A stretch of DNA of 64,000 nucleotides, from the IMG/VR virus record IMGVR_UViG_3300027792_000010, one strand, 5' to 3'. Positions 2,453 through 36,899 of this stretch are shown piece by piece; the stretch's first letter is position 1; the number at the start of each line of letters is the position of its first letter. This stretch comes from a virus. Below the pieces are notes generated by a model. The model searched no databases. It was given only the letters and a program-made list of their open reading frames with translations, and had not been told where the DNA came from. The translations under genes and the position numbers were made by a program.

Positions 2453-2537
2453 CTATATGTCTGTTTATTACTCTTAGCTAATCCTTAAAACTATATAATA
2501 ATAAACTTCTTATTGAGAGTTCTATATTAATAAGTTA

Positions 2538-2608
2538 TGCCCCTAATTGGTCTCGAACCAATGACTCCTGTTTTAGAGACAGTTGTTTTACCACTAAACT
2601 ATAAGGGC
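2538..2608 (-). tRNA. Amber suppressor tRNA (anticodon CTA)
   Basis: Acceptor GCCCTTA/TAGGGGC, D stem GTTT/AAAC, anticodon arm ACTGT-CTCTAAA-ACAGG, T arm ATTGG-TTCGAGA-CCAAT, A73. Confidence 0.88.
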
Positions 2609-2614
2609 ACATAA

Positions 2615-6494: not shown

Positions 6495-6581
6495 CTAATG
6501 CAAAACAACCACCTTCAGCGAAACCTTATTAGGTTGCTGTGGATTAGGGTTCGGGTTATTTTGATTAGTAACAATAAACAT
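6495..6581 (-). CDS. Attenuator leader peptide 1, MFIVTNQNNPNPNPQQPNKVSLKVVVLH (Asn/Gln/Pro sensor)
   Basis: SD AAAGGA, ATG, 13 consecutive N/Q/P codons, TAG stop 25 nt before the terminator; upstream of tRNA-Asn, Pro, Gln. Confidence 0.9.
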   Translation of the reverse strand: MFIVTNQNNPNPNPQQPNKVSLKVVVLH

Positions 6582-6610: not shown

Positions 6611-6639
6611 AATATACCACTTTGGTATAAGAAGATCAA
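6611..6639 (-). promoter_or_regulatory. Promoter of tRNA operon 1
   Basis: TTGATC-17 bp (ends AAAGTGG)-TATATT; same type at 29615-29643 and 36871-36899. Confidence 0.88.
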
Positions 6640-8482: not shown

Positions 8483-9424
8483 TTATTCAAAGTGAATACG
8501 TTTGATTGCATCTACAAACATACTTGATACATCGATTGTTTGAATGAACTCCTCTGAGTAATCTATTCCTGGTCTCCAAACTGTATTTGTAACATGTACT
8601 TTATTTATTGGGGATCTCTTCATATCCCATATAGCATCCTTAGTTAGTATTCCGTGTATAGCACAAGCATGAATTTCTATCGCTCCATTTGACTTAAGAA
8701 CTTCTGCAGCCTTTATCATGGACTTACCCGAGGCTATCTCGTCATCAATAATAATGCATATTCTACCTTTAACATTTCCAACTAGACTTGTAATTTGAGG
8801 ATTCTCCGTATCATCAACACGAATTTTACTCATGTATGCTACGGGAAGCTGACATAGCTCAGCGTACTCTGTAACCATTTTAGAGCTACCAGAGTCCAGG
8901 GCAACTAAAGTGGTCTTGTTGAAGGATACCTCTTTCTTAAGGTATTGATAGATTATCTCTTTCGGTACAAGATGATCTGTAGGAATCCTAAAAAATCCCT
9001 GAGTTTGCGGAGAATGTAAATTCATGAACATTGCACGGCTGGCACCTGCGGTTTGAAGAAGATCCGCCAGAAGACGAGCAGTGATAGATGTTCTGGACTC
9101 CCCCCGTTTGTCTGACCTGCAGTACGGATAATAAGGAAGAACGACTGTGATACGTCCGGCGCTTGCGTGCTTGAGAGTATCGATCATTATGAGCAGTTCC
9201 ATTATTCGTTCATTCTGATTAGGATAATTAGGCTGTATGATAAAGATATCATCACCGCGAACAGACTCTTCCACCTTAAATTTGATGTTGTCATTAGAAA
9301 ATATCAAAGAAGTTGTTTTCAATCTGGGAAGATAACTTTCTGTCACCAAATATTCTAACAATTTCGATTCAATCATATTATATAAGGGAAGTTGCTCACA
9401 TCCTGTCATGATGCGAAGTCTCAT
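8483..9424 (-). CDS. prs: Ribose-phosphate pyrophosphokinase family protein
   Basis: 'IKFKVEESVRGDDIFII', 'PYYPYCRSDK', 'LHSPQTQGFF', PRTase loop 'IIIDDEIASGKS'. Confidence 0.93.
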   Translation of the reverse strand: MRLRIMTGCEQLPLYNMIESKLLEYLVTESYLPRLKTTSLIFSNDNIKFKVEESVRGDDIFIIQPNYPNQNERIMELLIMIDTLKHASAGRITVVLPYYPYCRSDKRGESRTSITARLLADLLQTAGASRAMFMNLHSPQTQGFFRIPTDHLVPKEIIYQYLKKEVSFNKTTLVALDSGSSKMVTEYAELCQLPVAYMSKIRVDDTENPQITSLVGNVKGRICIIIDDEIASGKSMIKAAEVLKSNGAIEIHACAIHGILTKDAIWDMKRSPINKVHVTNTVWRPGIDYSEEFIQTIDVSSMFVDAIKRIHFE

Positions 9425-25267: not shown

Positions 25268-26608
25268 TCAGTTGATACTGTAGTTTGCCCTAATATACAA
25301 CAATGCTTGTTCTTTTGTTGTAACAGTACCTTCCAATTGTTCAGTGTCTACTGCTTCAAGAATCTCTTTGAATTTAGGTCCGGGTTTGAAACCCATAGCA
25401 ATAAGGTCATTACCATCTACCAATCTATCTGGAAGGATGACCTTACCTCCTGGTTCCTCTGCAAAAGAATCCATAGCTTCTTTAACAAACTGCAAATTAT
25501 CTAATCCTCCATGAGAAGACAAACAATCAGCCTTGTGAAGTTGCAAGTGCTCTTCAAATCTATCCATAGCTATAAATCTCTTAAGCGTGGACTTCCTCAT
25601 GTCCCGTATTACACAGAACTTCATATGGTTCTCAATTAGGGAACAAACCCTATCTATAAAATAATTTGAAAACTTCAACCTGGTTAATAGCTCTCTGGCT
25701 ATATGAGAGCCTTTAATATCATGTCCATTGAACACTAACCGACCTTTCCTATCATCCCAAGCTTTAGTAGTGGGCTTTCCCACATCATGCAACAAAGTAG
25801 CCCACAAAAGCTCTGGGGAGGCTTCTTTTGGGAGGTAATTCAAGGTGAGACAGGTGTGTTTACCGACGCACCCTTCTGGATGAAAGTCCACAGGCTGCTC
25901 ACACCCAAACATATCTTGAATTTCTGGCAGGATATGCTTTAGTATACCAAAATGTTCCAAATCCTTAAGAGCTTCTCCTCTGACTTTACTTTGTTCCAAT
26001 ATTTTTGTCAACTCATCTGCTATTCTCTCTACAGATATTTTCTTGATAAGGATACTATTATCCATTATAGCTTTCTCTGTATCGGAGTCCATAGAGAACC
26101 CCAAACGGTGTTTGAACCTTATGGCCCTCATTAATCTTAAGTGGTCTTCCAATATTCTCTCTTCAGGATCACCTATGAACCTAATTAATTTATCTTCTAT
26201 ATCTTTTCTACCGCCTACGTAATCATAGTACTCCTCAAGGGTAGGGTCATAAAAGATACCATTGATAGTGAGGTCTCTCCTGTTAGCATCCTCTTCCATA
26301 GTAGAAAACTCAACACTTGAAGGATGTCTACCATCCAAGTAAATACCTGCGTCTCTTCTAAAAGTAGCGACCTCAAATTGAATCCCATCAAGTATAACAA
26401 TTATTACGCCAAAAGCTTTCCCTACTTCTATATTATTAGGGAACAGTTCCTGAACTTGGTGAGGAAAAGCAGAGGTAGCTATATCATAATCATGCGGCAT
26501 AACACCCATAATTTGGTCACGATTGCAACCGCCAGCAAATACCGCTTGATATCCTGCGCTCTGTAGAATTTTAATAATACCTACAGCAAGTTCTTTTTGC
26601 TTATCCAT
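25268..26608 (-). CDS. cca: CCA-adding enzyme / class II tRNA nucleotidyltransferase with HD domain
   Basis: 'FAGGCNRD...DYDIAT', 'RRDLTING', 'EDHLRLMRAIRF', HD 'LLHDVGKP'. Confidence 0.9.
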   Translation of the reverse strand: MDKQKELAVGIIKILQSAGYQAVFAGGCNRDQIMGVMPHDYDIATSAFPHQVQELFPNNIEVGKAFGVIIVILDGIQFEVATFRRDAGIYLDGRHPSSVEFSTMEEDANRRDLTINGIFYDPTLEEYYDYVGGRKDIEDKLIRFIGDPEERILEDHLRLMRAIRFKHRLGFSMDSDTEKAIMDNSILIKKISVERIADELTKILEQSKVRGEALKDLEHFGILKHILPEIQDMFGCEQPVDFHPEGCVGKHTCLTLNYLPKEASPELLWATLLHDVGKPTTKAWDDRKGRLVFNGHDIKGSHIARELLTRLKFSNYFIDRVCSLIENHMKFCVIRDMRKSTLKRFIAMDRFEEHLQLHKADCLSSHGGLDNLQFVKEAMDSFAEEPGGKVILPDRLVDGNDLIAMGFKPGPKFKEILEAVDTEQLEGTVTTKEQALLYIRANYSIN

Positions 26609-29614: not shown

Positions 29615-29643
29615 AATATACCACTTTGCCGGGTAAAGATCAA
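29615..29643 (-). promoter_or_regulatory. Promoter of tRNA operon 2
   Basis: TTGATC-17 bp (ends AAAGTGG)-TATATT. Confidence 0.88.
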
Positions 29644-32015: not shown

Positions 32016-32094
32016 TGGTGGGCCTTGAGGGACTTGAACCCCGCTACTTACTGATTATGAGTCAGCTACTCTAAACCAACTGAGTTAAAGGCCC
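32016..32094 (-). tRNA. tRNA with CAT anticodon, probably Ile2 (lysidine)
   Basis: Acceptor GGGCCTT/AAGGCCC (C4,C5), arm GCTGA-CTCATAA-TCAGT, A73, CCA; one extra base in the T stem. Confidence 0.85.
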
Positions 32095-33466: not shown

Positions 33467-34582
33467 TTAAACTTGGATAAATCCAACTTCATAAGGTTTG
33501 TAACGGGCACCGTACAGCCCCGTAAGAAATCGAGTCAATATGTTCACAGCTCCGATCACGTCGGCGTTGCCTATGTGACCACATTTCAGGCACCGGAACA
33601 CTTGTCCTACTCGATTCCCCCTATTGACATGACCACAGCTTGGGCATGTTTGGCTGGTATAATAAGGAGCTACAGTGCGAAAACTAACACGGTTAGTCTC
33701 GCAAGCTTGCTCAAGCCTTTTTAACCAATACCTATACGCCCAAGTGCCGATAGAACGCCGCATATTTTTACTCAAGCGGCGTTTGAGTTTACTTTTGAAA
33801 TTCATGTTCTTAAGAGCTTCAACCACGACTAAATCGATGTGTTTGAACTCTTTGACAATTTCTTGTACAACTTCATCTATTCTTTGTTTAAAAGCTCTAC
33901 GAGCCTGTTTTTGCCCATTAGAGCCATGAGTGCAGCGTTTGATACGTTCAATACAGGCTTCTGTATCTAAACCAAATTGCTGGCCATTATTAATAGAAGC
34001 AAGTGCTTTTATCCCTGTGTCAATACCGATAGCATTTACACCTTCTTTTTTCTTGCCAGCATCTATTTCGAAAGAGAACTGAACATAGTTATCTGTGAGG
34101 ATGTAGGAATTAAGGCGTTTTCCCTGAAGAGCCAATTTATTATAATGTTTATGAAACTTTATAGGTATATCAAGGATTGTATCTTCACCAATAGACTGGA
34201 GATGGAGCCAAGCATCAAATTCTTTAGAGTCCTCTTTTTCCTGAAGATCAGCTATAGTACAGGAAACATAAGCTCTTTTGCCTTTATGAATGGGCATAGA
34301 GATTTTCCAAGGCTTATCTTTCCATCGTTCTTTTACGGCAGTAATCATATCTATAGCTTCTCTGGCTGCGACCTTTCGGAGCCTAGCGGTGAGCCACGTA
34401 CCATGAGGGATGTCAACAATTTCTTTTAAGAGTTCTGATTTAGAAGGAGTTCCATTCTTCCAGAAGTAATTGATAAAAGTGTTACAGACCCGACCATACT
34501 CAGCGAGGACCTTACGAAGCTCGGAGAGTTTGGAGGCTGTAGCAAATTTAAGACTACATTTAGAAGAACGAATCAGTTTCAT
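33467..34582 (-). mobile_element. tnpB: TnpB RNA-guided nuclease (solo, no TnpA)
   Basis: RuvC-I 'IGIDTG', RuvC-II 'VVEAL', Zn ribbon 'TSQTCPSCG...FRCLKCG', RuvC-III 'NADVIGAVNI'. Confidence 0.93.
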
Positions 34583-34896: not shown

Positions 34897-34983
34897 TGAC
34901 TACCTCCTGTTTTAATATTATTTGAGATTTCTTCTTTTTATTTTTGGCACTTCTACGCCAGTAAATTTTTGAAGAAAACGAAG

Positions 34984-35033
<50 letters not shown>

Positions 35034-35629: not shown

Positions 35630-35732
35630 TACGCCCGGAGTGACTCGAACACTCGACCCATAGCTTCTCTGACAGTCCTACTAACGACTGCCCGAGAAGG
35701 CTATTGCTCTAATCCAACTGAGCTACGGACGC
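35630..35732 (-). tRNA. tRNA-Arg(TCT) with a 28-nt insertion in the anticodon loop
   Basis: Acceptor GCGTCCG/CGGGCGT, normal D and T arms; deleting 35667-35694 restores ATAGC-CTTCTAA-GCTAT. Confidence 0.85.
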
Positions 35733-35738
35733 ATAATT

Positions 35739-35813
35739 TGGAGCGAGGTGCGGGAGTCAAACCCGCCAGATTCACCTTGGAAGGGTGACGCATAATCGAT
35801 CTGCCTACCCCGC
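35739..35813 (-). tRNA. tRNA-Gly(TCC)
   Basis: Acceptor GCGGGGT/ACCTCGC, U73, CCA, arm TCACC-CTTCCAA-GGTGA; T loop TTTGACT. Confidence 0.9.
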
Positions 35814-35853
35814 ATAATTATAATATACTATTTGGTATTCTAACTTTAAAGTA

Positions 35854-35936
35854 TGGAGCCTGGAGAGGGAGTTTCACCCTCTGGTCGCTTTATCCCCGAG
35901 CGAGTGGGGACCCTTAGCTTCAAGAGCTATCCCGGC
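35854..35936 (-). ncRNA. tRNA-like RNA with CCA end and a pseudoknot-capable hairpin replacing the anticodon arm
   Basis: Acceptor GCCGGGA/TCCAGGC + T + CCA; T-like arm GAGGG-TGAAACT-CCCTC; D-like TAGCT/AGCTA; TCCCC-ACTCGCTC-GGGGA whose loop TCGCT can pair with downstream AGCGA. Confidence 0.55.
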
Positions 35937-36209
35937 ATAACTTTCCATCAAAAACTCATTAAACTTTCTCTCCTGCATAGTAAGCTTATCTTTTTTACTC
36001 CAGTTTGCTCTGCGGGGATTTTTACACATAATACAGGAGCAAAGTTTGGTGGTATCCCTTCTTATTTGAGCTTCCTTCTCTATGAAGTCTGCTCTTTCTT
36101 TTTCTGAGGTTAGCCACTTAGCAGTACTGCCGTAATAACCTAATGCACGTTTTTTCCCCAACTTCTTACCGATGAGGAAGCGTTCACGCTTATCTTTTGG
36201 ATGTGACAT
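35874..36209 (-). CDS. Small basic Cys-containing protein; 3' end overlaps the tRNA-like element
   Basis: 'RRDTTKLCSCIMCKNPRR'; ORF track. Confidence 0.6.
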   Translation of the reverse strand: MSHPKDKRERFLIGKKLGKKRALGYYGSTAKWLTSEKERADFIEKEAQIRRDTTKLCSCIMCKNPRRANWSKKDKLTMQERKFNEFLMESYAGIALEAKGPHSLGDKATRG

Positions 36210-36357
36210 AATGTATCCTTTCCTGTATTGCGCCCCTCACGAGCGCATGCTTATGGATTTCATTATGCCCTCCTTTAAAATAAGTTTAATTCGAACCTGG
36301 TAAAGAAGTTCGAAAGCATACCTCTAAAGTACAATTTTAAGTATAAATAAATTACTA

Positions 36358-36430
36358 TGCGGGTGAGGAGAATCGAACTCCTGTCACTACATTGGCAATG
36401 TAGCATACTAAACCGCTGTACTACACCCGC
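36358..36430 (-). tRNA. tRNA-Gly(GCC), A73
   Basis: Acceptor GCGGGTG/CACCCGC, arm CTACA-TTGCCAA-TGTAG. Confidence 0.9.
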
Positions 36431-36444
36431 TTAAAATTACTTTA

Positions 36445-36521
36445 TGGTGGGCTGTGAGGGACTTGAACCCCCGATCTTCTCGTTATGAGCGAGCTTCTTT
36501 AACCAACTAAGATAACAGCCC
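36445..36521 (-). tRNA. tRNA with CAT anticodon (Ile2 favoured, elongator Met possible)
   Basis: Acceptor GGGCTGT/ACAGCCC, loop CTCATAA, C4-G69, U12-A23, A73, CCA; the upstream leader has two ATA codons and no internal ATG. Confidence 0.85.
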
Positions 36522-36534
36522 TTAATAAAAGATA

Positions 36535-36606
36535 TACCCCTGCCCGGAGTCGAACCGGGACGCTGACAATGAAAGTGTCAGGACCTAACCGTTAGTCTAC
36601 AGGGGC
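36535..36606 (-). tRNA. tRNA-Glu(TTC)
   Basis: Acceptor GCCCCTG/CAGGGGT, arm TGACA-CTTTCAT-TGTCA. Confidence 0.93.
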
Positions 36607-36628
36607 GTAATTCAATATTCATAATAGA

Positions 36629-36640
36629 TGTCAAAGATCA
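36629..36640 (-). promoter_or_regulatory. boxA-like antitermination sequence
   Basis: TGATCTTTGACA between attenuator 3 and the first tRNA; resembles rRNA-operon boxA. Weaker TGTTCTTTTAAA in operon 1 (about 6414-6425). Confidence 0.55.
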
Positions 36641-36648
36641 TATAAAAC

Positions 36649-36686
36649 AAAAAACCCCTGCCTGGATTTTATCCTGACAGGGGTTT
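36649..36686 (-). terminator. Attenuator 3 intrinsic terminator
   Basis: CCCCTGTC-A-GGAT-AAA-ATCC-A-GGCAGGGG then TTTTTTGTTTT; 5' arm alternatively pairs with CCTGACGGGG (36712-36721) spanning the leader stop. Confidence 0.9.
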
Positions 36687-36716
36687 GAAGTCTTTGTAAT
36701 GATATTATCATCCCCG

Positions 36717-36785
36717 TCAGGTTGGCTTTAGCCTTCCTTCTCCTTCTCTACCCTCTATACCTATGGTAGCTGGGATGTAAAACAT
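36717..36785 (-). CDS. Attenuator leader peptide 3, MFYIPATIGIEGREGEGRLKPT (Ile/Gly/Glu/Arg sensor)
   Basis: SD AAAGGA; 11 consecutive codons ATA GGT ATA GAG GGT AGA GAA GGA GAA GGA AGG; upstream of tRNA-Glu, CAT, Gly x2, Arg(TCT). Confidence 0.9.
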   Translation of the reverse strand: MFYIPATIGIEGREGEGRLKPT

Positions 36786-36870
36786 GATACTTTCCTTTTT
36801 TATTTGGATAGGTTGCCCGATGGTACCATCCATTTACAATTTATTAACAAATATTATAACTTTCAATATT

Positions 36871-36899
36871 AATATACCATTTTGAGATATAAAGATCAA
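36871..36899 (-). promoter_or_regulatory. Promoter of tRNA operon 3
   Basis: TTGATC-17 bp (ends AAAATGG)-TATATT. Confidence 0.88.

Follow-up and report, generated by a model that had tools for sequence, protein, structure and literature searches.

A putative ribosome-mediated attenuator with a codon-matched leader peptide ahead of a phage tRNA operon

Leader-peptide attenuation is the textbook control of amino-acid operons. In the enterobacterial leaders thrL (Thr/Ile), ilvL of ilvGMEDA (Ile/Leu/Val), trpL, hisL and pheL, a promoter-proximal Shine–Dalgarno (SD) sequence and a short open reading frame (ORF) with control codons are followed by mutually exclusive 1:2, 2:3 and 3:4 helices and by a terminator with a U-run, and the position of the ribosome decides which helix forms. 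The same layout is described here for a unit designated A3, located at 35630-36899 on the minus strand of a 64,000-nt stretch of phage DNA (IMG/VR record IMGVR_UViG_3300027792_000010; this whole stretch is called the window). A3 resembles the thr and ilv leaders in being multivalent and has no sequence relation to the enterobacterial leaders; it differs from them in that its cargo consists of tRNAs rather than biosynthetic enzymes, that codons are matched to isoacceptors, and that it is borne by a phage, with one such unit per tRNA block.

Two further systems are close in function. The pheM leader of pheST attenuates an aminoacyl-tRNA synthetase gene by way of a leader peptide, so that part of the translation apparatus responds, as would be the case in A3, to stalling on its own cognate codons; pheM regulates a protein enzyme and concerns a single amino acid, whereas the products of A3 are the tRNAs themselves. 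In T-box riboswitches, too, the status of tRNA decides read-through into translation-related genes, but the T-box binds uncharged tRNA by a specifier codon and the T-box sequence and has no leader peptide, whereas A3 has an SD sequence and an ORF. Among the Rfam leader families (His, Thr, Leu, Trp) and the T-box, none matched A3 at the gathering threshold or at E <= 1, and only tRNA models were hit. A literature search found no published leader-peptide attenuation of tRNA genes, nor a virus that matches tRNA supply to codon demand in this way. E. coli pheV/pheU was considered as a possible precedent with a Phe-rich leader and dropped; the region upstream of pheV (about 100 nt) holds no leader ORF.

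The window comes from a freshwater-sediment metagenome contig of 190,913 bp (JGI). Its G+C content is 36.8%, it carries phage hallmarks (ribonucleotide reductase, NAD synthetase, RNA ligase, CCA-adding enzyme and a TnpB gene), and 16 tRNA genes, every one on the minus strand, were found in it with ARAGORN and Rfam at default settings. All coordinates are positions in the window, and the unit is read on the minus strand. Comparisons were made mainly with a related phage that is syntenic with the window and comes from another sediment series (the relative; stretch L155).

Transcription of A3 is predicted to start at a sigma-70-like promoter, P1 (36870-36899), composed of a -35 element TTGATC, a 17-nt spacer ending in TGG (extended -10) and a -10 element TATATT. 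The 5' untranslated region (5'UTR) is about 80 nt long and contains a predicted stem-loop (36805-36833) immediately upstream of the SD sequence AGGA (36793-36796), which lies 7 nt before the ATG at 36785. The leader ORF (36717-36785) has 22 codons plus TGA (36719-36717), encodes MFYIPATIGIEGREGEGRLKPT and contains no internal ATG. An alternative frame of 38 aa from an ATG at 36833 was rejected as the leader; it has no SD sequence, and its ATG is missing in L155 and in a second lineage, L197. The initial annotation had pointed to eleven codons that match the downstream tRNAs, and all of them are present, consecutively, at 36764-36732: ATA GGT ATA GAG GGT AGA GAA GGA GAA GGA AGG. Sorted by decoder, the leader thus samples Glu three times and ATA, GGY, GGA and AGR twice each. 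The cargo comprises tRNA-Glu(TTC) (36535-36606), a tRNA with the anticodon CAT that is most likely tRNA-Ile2 (36445-36521), tRNA-Gly(GCC) (36358-36430) and tRNA-Gly(TCC) (35739-35813), each found by ARAGORN and Rfam, and tRNA-Arg(TCT) (35630-35732), all on the minus strand.

Four segments of the leader transcript can pair in alternative ways. Region 1 (CATCCC, codons 3-5, 36772-36777) pairs with GGGGATG of region 2 in minimum-free-energy (MFE) folds. Region 2, the 5' strand of the antiterminator (CCTGACGGGG, 36712-36721), spans the TGA and pairs with the 5' arm of the terminator, CCCCTGTCAGG, so that the proposal of an antiterminator lying over the stop codon also held up. It is directly followed by a small A/U hairpin (ATGATAATATCAT, 36699-36711) that is seen in the fold and kept in relatives as ATGATATTATCAT; this hairpin is a possible candidate for a pause element. 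The intrinsic terminator hairpin (36655-36683) consists of region 3 (CCCCTGTCAGG, 36683-36673), a loop and region 4 (CCAGGCAGGGG, 36665-36655); its stem is G+C-rich, has 11 bp and a predicted energy of -19.8 kcal/mol, and its lone A.A mismatch is an A-T pair in relatives (-24.2 kcal/mol). The T-run TTTTTTGTTTT (36644-36654) follows directly and ends 38 nt before tRNA-Glu. The attenuator unit as a whole measures about 250 nt.

The codon match and the antiterminator were compared with chance. The nine codons that can be decoded by the five tRNAs of the block make up 20.2% of the codons in the long ORFs of the window, and a run of 11 such codons in a 21-codon frame has P <= 2.5e-7; apart from one (GA)n simple repeat, it is the longest such run in the six frames of the 64-kb window. 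The 2:3 antiterminator duplex has an energy of -20.1 kcal/mol, compared with -9.3 +/- 2.4 kcal/mol for shuffles of the upstream 67 nt; the real value was reached by one of 2000 shuffles, and by none of 2000 in the relative. The putative 1:2 pairing of CATCCC with GGGGATG is short (6 bp here, 7 bp in L155 through the synonymous change CCA>CCC) and was seen in MFE folds.

When the full leader was folded, the terminator was intact and region 1 was paired with region 2. Folding was then constrained by a mask that stood for the ribosome. A ribosome held upstream was represented by a mask extending to 12 nt before the stop codon, with the 3' arm of the terminator not yet transcribed; under these conditions the CCTGACGGGG-CCCCTGTCAGG helix formed with -18.8 kcal/mol (-18.2 kcal/mol in the relative). 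With the mask placed at the stop codon, the 2:3 helix was impossible (-1.6 kcal/mol left) and the terminator formed with -22.2 kcal/mol (-27.4 kcal/mol in the relative). The mask-dependent folding predicted in this way matches the classical geometry of ribosome-mediated attenuators (trp, his, thr).

We consider it likely that the unit is a ribosome-mediated attenuator whose tRNAs are made when ATA, GGN, GAR or AGR codons are read slowly and are switched off when they are read fast. Host RNA polymerase would start at P1, and a ribosome would translate the 22-codon leader. As long as the aminoacyl-tRNAs for ATA, GGN, GAR and AGR are plentiful, the ribosome would reach the TGA and cover CCTGACGGGG, the terminator hairpin would form, and transcription would end before tRNA-Glu. 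Slow decoding at any one of them would stall the ribosome within codons 8-18, leaving CCTGACGGGG free to pair with the 5' arm of the terminator; the resulting antitermination would allow read-through into Glu(TTC), Ile2(CAT) and Gly(GCC), and probably also into Gly(TCC) and Arg(TCT). The transcribed tRNAs would relieve the stall, and we therefore propose that the unit is a supply circuit with negative feedback at codon resolution. Translation of the leader, stalling on it and regulated read-through are what we infer from the arrangement.

ATA, AGA, AGG and GGA are classic rare codons in many bacteria. They are among the preferred codons of the phage: ATA is its commonest Ile codon (42.6 per 1000; ATT 22.8, ATC 15.6), and AGA is its commonest Arg codon (19.3 per 1000). 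Since several of the sampled codons are rare in many bacteria but preferred by the phage, the circuit would correct a mismatch between supply and demand. The natural trigger may be such a codon-usage mismatch, host shut-off or a tRNA-cleaving host defence, among which the sequence does not distinguish.

Relatives were collected by scanning metagenomes with an 18-base P1 motif and detecting tRNAs downstream. Among the 68 motif-matching stretches, 10 had tRNA genes downstream, including L155, L140, L187, L172 and L132 (the last from the window's own sample), and all five types of unit were represented; the Logan contig L002 was identical to the window and hence without added information. Protein look-ups led to two further lineages of A3, L195/L196 and L197, and the A3 leader was compared in L155, L195 and L197 (three close lineages only). 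Among viral contigs, the exact P1 promoter motif had no match, a loose form of it had 120 unrelated matches, none of them with a tRNA after it, and the 18-base motif had four matches, all within the same 120 unrelated loci; the proteins neighbouring the unit had no match there either. Homologues of the RNA ligase were plentiful at 54-75% identity, on contigs that, where their DNA could be inspected, are not syntenic with the tRNA blocks. The protein P0126, a 38% relative of a 420-aa neighbour protein, was set aside, its contig being without tRNAs.

The promoter, SD sequence, leader and terminator of A3 are conserved in the relatives, while the rest of the 5'UTR has diverged with insertions and deletions. 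The 30-nt P1 motif is kept in L155, L195 and L197, as are the SD sequence and the start codon, and the segment AAAAAAGGAAAG(T/C)ATCATG is conserved across all relatives. The stem-loop of the 5'UTR is preserved in L155 and L197 by changes on both strands (GGATGG/CCTATCC versus GGAGAAG/CTTCTCC) within surroundings that have diverged. Across the three other lineages, synonymous Gly changes (GGT>GGA and GGA>GGC) are the sole differences within the 11 control codons, and both replacement codons can be read by tRNAs of the block; N-terminal residues of the leader vary (F/L, Y/H, A/T, T/S), and a neighbouring 133-aa protein is only 72% identical. The anatomy of the unit, its non-randomness, its conservation and the codon–tRNA match are thus features of the DNA itself.

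Promoter and design are shared by three units in the window and five in the related phage. The motif TTGATCTT-N8-AAAR-TGGTATATTA occurs three times in the window (<=3 mismatches) where none is expected, the copies other than that of A3 lying at 6639-6610 and 29643-29614, and every copy heads a unit of leader, terminator and tRNAs. The units were labelled A1 (at 6639), A2 (at 29643), A3, A4 (in L187) and A5 (in L172/L132); A4 and A5 are known only from the stretches of relatives. The leader of A1 contains NQNNPNPNPQQPN and precedes Asn, Pro and Gln tRNAs, and that of A2 contains VVKVKVVAKRHK and precedes two Lys tRNAs, two Val tRNAs and Arg(ACG). When the leader codons were scored against the blocks, with A5 left out since its tRNA block is only partly visible, the own-block counts for A1 to A4 were 13, 10 (13 in the relative), 11 and 19, compared with at most 8 for any other block.

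The codon families are partitioned among the leaders: A3 samples Ile ATA and Arg AGR, A4 (L187) samples Ile ATY, Ser AGY, Met, Phe and Asp, A2 samples Arg CGN, Lys and Val, and A5 (L172/L132) samples mostly other codons. This argues that tRNA species, not amino acids, are matched. It bears on a reading in which the attenuator would report general translation stress or amino-acid starvation through uncharged tRNA, for instance after host shut-off, and not how large particular tRNA pools are, the tRNAs being part of an early stress regulon. Such a role would be in keeping with a leader that samples four amino acids, and leader-peptide attenuators in general respond to charged, not total, tRNA, as is established for those of trp, his, thr and ilv. 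We regard it as quite improbable, however, since the match is made by codon and isoacceptor (ATA and not ATY, AGR and not CGN occur in the run, and other families occur in other units) and since the tRNAs carried are those that read the sampled codons, a set that is kept despite replacement of the genes.

Two side observations concern the A1 block. A tRNA with the suppressor-type anticodon CTA lies downstream of A1 (2537-2609, minus strand), and, of the window's three leaders, that of A1 alone has TAG as its stop codon (6495-6497, minus strand).

Contigs from RNA libraries were also inspected; gaps in their coverage are without meaning. One contig covers 36684-36820 and another 36576-36824, the latter crossing the terminator into tRNA-Glu; a single G>T at 36680 in an RNA-library contig (depth 2.2) may be an error. 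A terminator-spanning contig would be expected as well if the terminator were constitutive and partly leaky, or were the 3' end of a small leader RNA, in which case the tRNA level would be fixed and low, the ORF untranslated or irrelevant and the codon match meaningless. The invariance of the stems among relatives, with no covariation for the alternative pairing, would likewise suit this explanation. It is nonetheless highly improbable in our view: the codon run, the anticodon match and the antiterminator each lie far beyond chance; own blocks are the best match for seven of the nine leader copies, those of A1 to A4, which differ in sequence and each fit their own block; and the control codons are kept at codon level, together with the SD sequence, while the N-terminal residues and the 5'UTR drift.

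Several points weigh against ribosome-mediated attenuation nevertheless. The 2:3 and 3:4 stems are almost invariant across the three close lineages and so offer no covariation in favour of the A3 switch. The RNA-library contigs cannot show strand, ends, level or transcription, and carry-over of DNA is possible. With 2-3 codons per tRNA, compared with seven His codons in hisL, the sensitivity to each single tRNA may be low. Stalling at the very end of the control run, on its last or last two codons, would bring the ribosome to no more than about 12-15 nt from region 2, part of which it could then mask. Amino-acid starvation would also stall the ribosome, and extra tRNA would not cure it. Finally, an internal promoter, described below, may free Gly(TCC) and Arg(TCT) from the switch.

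The tRNA genes themselves have been exchanged to a large extent. Orthologues shared by the window and L155 are Lys(CTT) (99% identity), Arg(TCT) (89%), Pro(TGG) (88%) and a second CAT tRNA at 32094 (85%). The Glu(TTC), Gly(GCC), Gly(TCC) and ATA decoder of A3, on the other hand, are only 58-73% identical to their counterparts in the relative, which is no closer than unrelated tRNAs. The order and decoding specificity of the A3 tRNAs are identical although four of the five genes are non-orthologous; the relative has an additional Glu(CTC). A decoding set that is kept while its genes are replaced is what would be expected if the leader codons and the cargo are functionally coupled. As a general observation on the window and L155/L140, many tRNAs with the same anticodon are 58-70% identical, like unrelated tRNAs, and a few are 85-99% identical, with the order of the blocks and the leader codons kept.

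The CAT tRNA of A3 had been predicted to be a lysidine-modified tRNA-Ile2, on the grounds that the leader has two ATA codons and no internal ATG. Elongator and initiator tRNA-Met carry C3-G70, and G3 or A3 with C70 or T70 acts as a negative discriminator against both; C4-G69 and C5-G68 are frequent, not obligatory, in tRNA-Ile(CAT), and A11-T24 with G12-C23 marks the initiator (Silva et al. 2006, PMC1635315). The acceptor stem of the tRNA at 36521-36445 (GGGCTGT/ACAGCCC) gives G3-C70, C4-G69 and T5-A68, and the pairs C11-G24 and T12-A23 are not those of an initiator. The tRNA is 77% identical to the other CAT tRNA of the window (32094-32016). Compared with the relative, it is 73% identical to Ile(TAT), 64% to Ile(GAT) and 51-53% to the three other CAT tRNAs, one of which has C3-G70, one an initiator-like start (GCGGGGTGGAGCAG) with A11/G12, and a third is not classifiable. 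Behind the same ATA-ATA leader, L155 (4577-4652) and L195 carry a tRNA-Ile(TAT) in the slot that separates Glu from Gly(GCC).

Taken together, the G3-C70 and C4-G69 pairs, the likeness to Ile-type tRNAs and the TAT anticodon in the same slot support the prediction, and the tRNA at 36521-36445 is very probably tRNA-Ile2 and not tRNA-Met, and would read ATA once modified to lysidine. The alternative, that it is an elongator tRNA-Met and that a different tRNA, for example the one at 32094-32016, decodes ATA in the leader, has some footing in that second gene. The latter (32016-32094, minus strand) is 77-79% identical to E. coli tRNA-Ile genes over its full length, has G3-C70, C4-G69 and C5-G68, and lies outside any leader unit; its L155 orthologue is at 8989-9065. 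It thus matches the E. coli genes better than the A3 tRNA, which has T5-A68 and no E. coli match. An elongator identity is still rather unlikely: G3-C70 is reported to exclude both tRNA-Met and tRNA-fMet (PMC1635315), identities to Ile-type phage tRNAs are 77% and 73% as against 51-53% to the Met-type ones, the corresponding slot in L155 and L195 holds tRNA-Ile(TAT), and the sole leader with an internal ATG is the one that precedes the relative's Met-type CAT tRNAs. Judged by sequence, the phage appears to have two genes of the Ile2 type (36521-36445 and 32094-32016).

Mycoplasma mobile has a tRNA-Ile(UAU) in place of tRNA-Ile2(CAU) plus TilS (PMC1635315; PMC3575796). As in that case, AUA would have one of two decoders, a lysidine-dependent CAT tRNA or a TAT tRNA, here in the same slot of related phages; unlike in M. 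mobile, the exchange is between phage genomes and behind a conserved leader that contains ATA. Apart from NAD synthetase, no TilS-like PP-loop protein was found in the 64-kb window. A further tRNA with an ambiguous call, named 'tRNA-Tyr(ata)' by ARAGORN (L187 7384-7456), starts with GCGGGGTGGAGCAG, has the anticodon arm GGCTCATAAGCC and looks like an initiator tRNA-fMet(CAT).

The distal part of the operon probably has a source of transcription of its own. An internal promoter at 35822-35850 (minus strand), which the initial annotation had raised as a caveat, was borne out as a promoter-like site of a second class, P2 (TTTAAA-17-TATATT, core AAATAGTATATTA), that is conserved in L155 with one change. 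The class core A[AT]A[AT]AGTATATTA has 10 copies on the minus strand of the window (51986, 44532, 35833, 33424, 27202, 21600, 18485, 15103, 6057 and 2351) and none on the plus strand, and these lie mostly before protein genes. The TTGATC-type promoter P1, which heads tRNA units only, and the P2 class suggest two temporal or factor classes. P2 thus probably gives Gly(TCC) and Arg(TCT) a further transcription source that does not depend on the attenuator. As the interval between Gly(GCC) and P2 contains no terminator, read-through from P1 can also reach these two tRNAs. No separate promoter was found in the window between the terminator and tRNA-Glu. The U-run in L155 is only about 25 nt from tRNA-Glu, leaving no room for a promoter, so that the tRNAs there would be made only by terminator read-through.

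Between Gly(GCC) and P2 lies a 111-aa ORF with no assigned function (35874-36209, minus strand; the relative has an 89-aa ORF in the same place). Ahead of it, an upstream ORF of 8 codons that has a strong SD sequence (AAAGGAGG) is conserved, at 36237-36263 on the minus strand and at about 4812-4838 in L155; its product is MKSISMRS in the window and MASSSMRP in the relative, and a G+C-rich segment comes after it. A conserved structured stretch with two hairpins lies at and beyond the end of the 111-aa ORF (35845-35925, minus strand; L155 5150-5232). One of the hairpins shows changes on both strands (AGAGGG/CCCTCT versus TGGGTGG/CCCATCT), and the stretch is non-coding in L155, where the ORF ends earlier. 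In the interval from the A3 operon to the second CAT tRNA, a (GA)n dinucleotide repeat (about 34950-35030) adjoins a TnpB gene (Cas12f1-like_TNB, 33467-34582); TnpB occupies the same place in L155. Genes for an RNA ligase (PF09414, 4652-5638) and a CCA-adding enzyme (25268-26608), both on the minus strand, lie within or beside tRNA blocks and resemble a toolkit for tRNA repair and maturation.

The last gene of the operon, tRNA-Arg(TCT), is 103 nt long, with its anticodon at 35697-35695 and a 28-nt hairpin insert at 35694-35667. It was missed by ARAGORN at default settings and by the fast filters of Rfam because of this insert right after the anticodon. With permissive filters, it scored 51.3 bits against the Rfam tRNA model RF00005 (gathering threshold 29) over model positions 1-71, and the covariance-model alignment placed a 31-nt insertion block within the anticodon loop. 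The insert is predicted to lengthen the anticodon stem to about 18 bp, with the anticodon hidden inside the helix. The homologue in L155 (5337-5442, 89% identical) is called Arg(tct) with a 28-nt intron by the intron mode of ARAGORN, and the two differ by compensatory changes that preserve pairing along the lengthened stem: a T-A pair of the anticodon stem corresponds to C-G and a C-G pair of the extension to A-T, and a G.A mismatch and a G.T wobble of the window's gene are G-C pairs in L155. A 27-nt insert of the same design is present in Val(TAC) of the relative's A2 block (L155 12957-13061). The intron-mode calls 'Leu(tag)' (35732-35630) and 'Thr(agt)' (L155 12957-13061) were rejected because homology, the covariance-model alignment and the conserved order of CT, anticodon, insert and AA give Arg(TCT) and Val(TAC). 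Cyanophage tRNA-Arg genes that match the 5' half of the gene were also set aside; the one examined, from Synechococcus phage Sf-CH11, is an ordinary 77-nt tRNA without insert or leader. 'Enigmatic' introns for which the splicing route is not known have been described in tRNA genes of Lak megaphages (Devoto et al. 2019, PMC6784885). Like them, the Arg(TCT) insert is a short interruption of the anticodon loop of a phage tRNA and too small for a group I intron; it differs from them in forming a hairpin of 28 nt whose pairing extends over the anticodon.

A further role can be suggested only tentatively, and we would give it a small chance: leader-gated tRNA operons as an inducible counter-defence, in which the leaders would sense codon-resolved damage and switch on replacement tRNAs. 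Host tRNAs may be removed by anticodon nucleases, by other tRNA-depleting immunity or through phage-induced host shut-off. Selection may then act on the 'slot', that is, on a sensed codon and the decoder following it, and not on the tRNA gene, which would, if this view is true, explain the non-orthologous or CAT-for-TAT swaps under a fixed leader.

If attenuation by the leader holds true, large phages would control their sets of tRNAs block by block, through feedback that comes directly from the ribosome. This would bear on the question why phages carry tRNAs, for which a mismatch in codon usage and a defence against tRNA-cleaving immunity are the opposing answers. The codons of a leader would, moreover, offer a route to the decoding identity of ambiguous phage tRNAs from sequence only; the CAT tRNA of A3 may serve as an example, the leader-based call of Ile2 agreeing with the published discriminators and with the TAT replacement in relatives.

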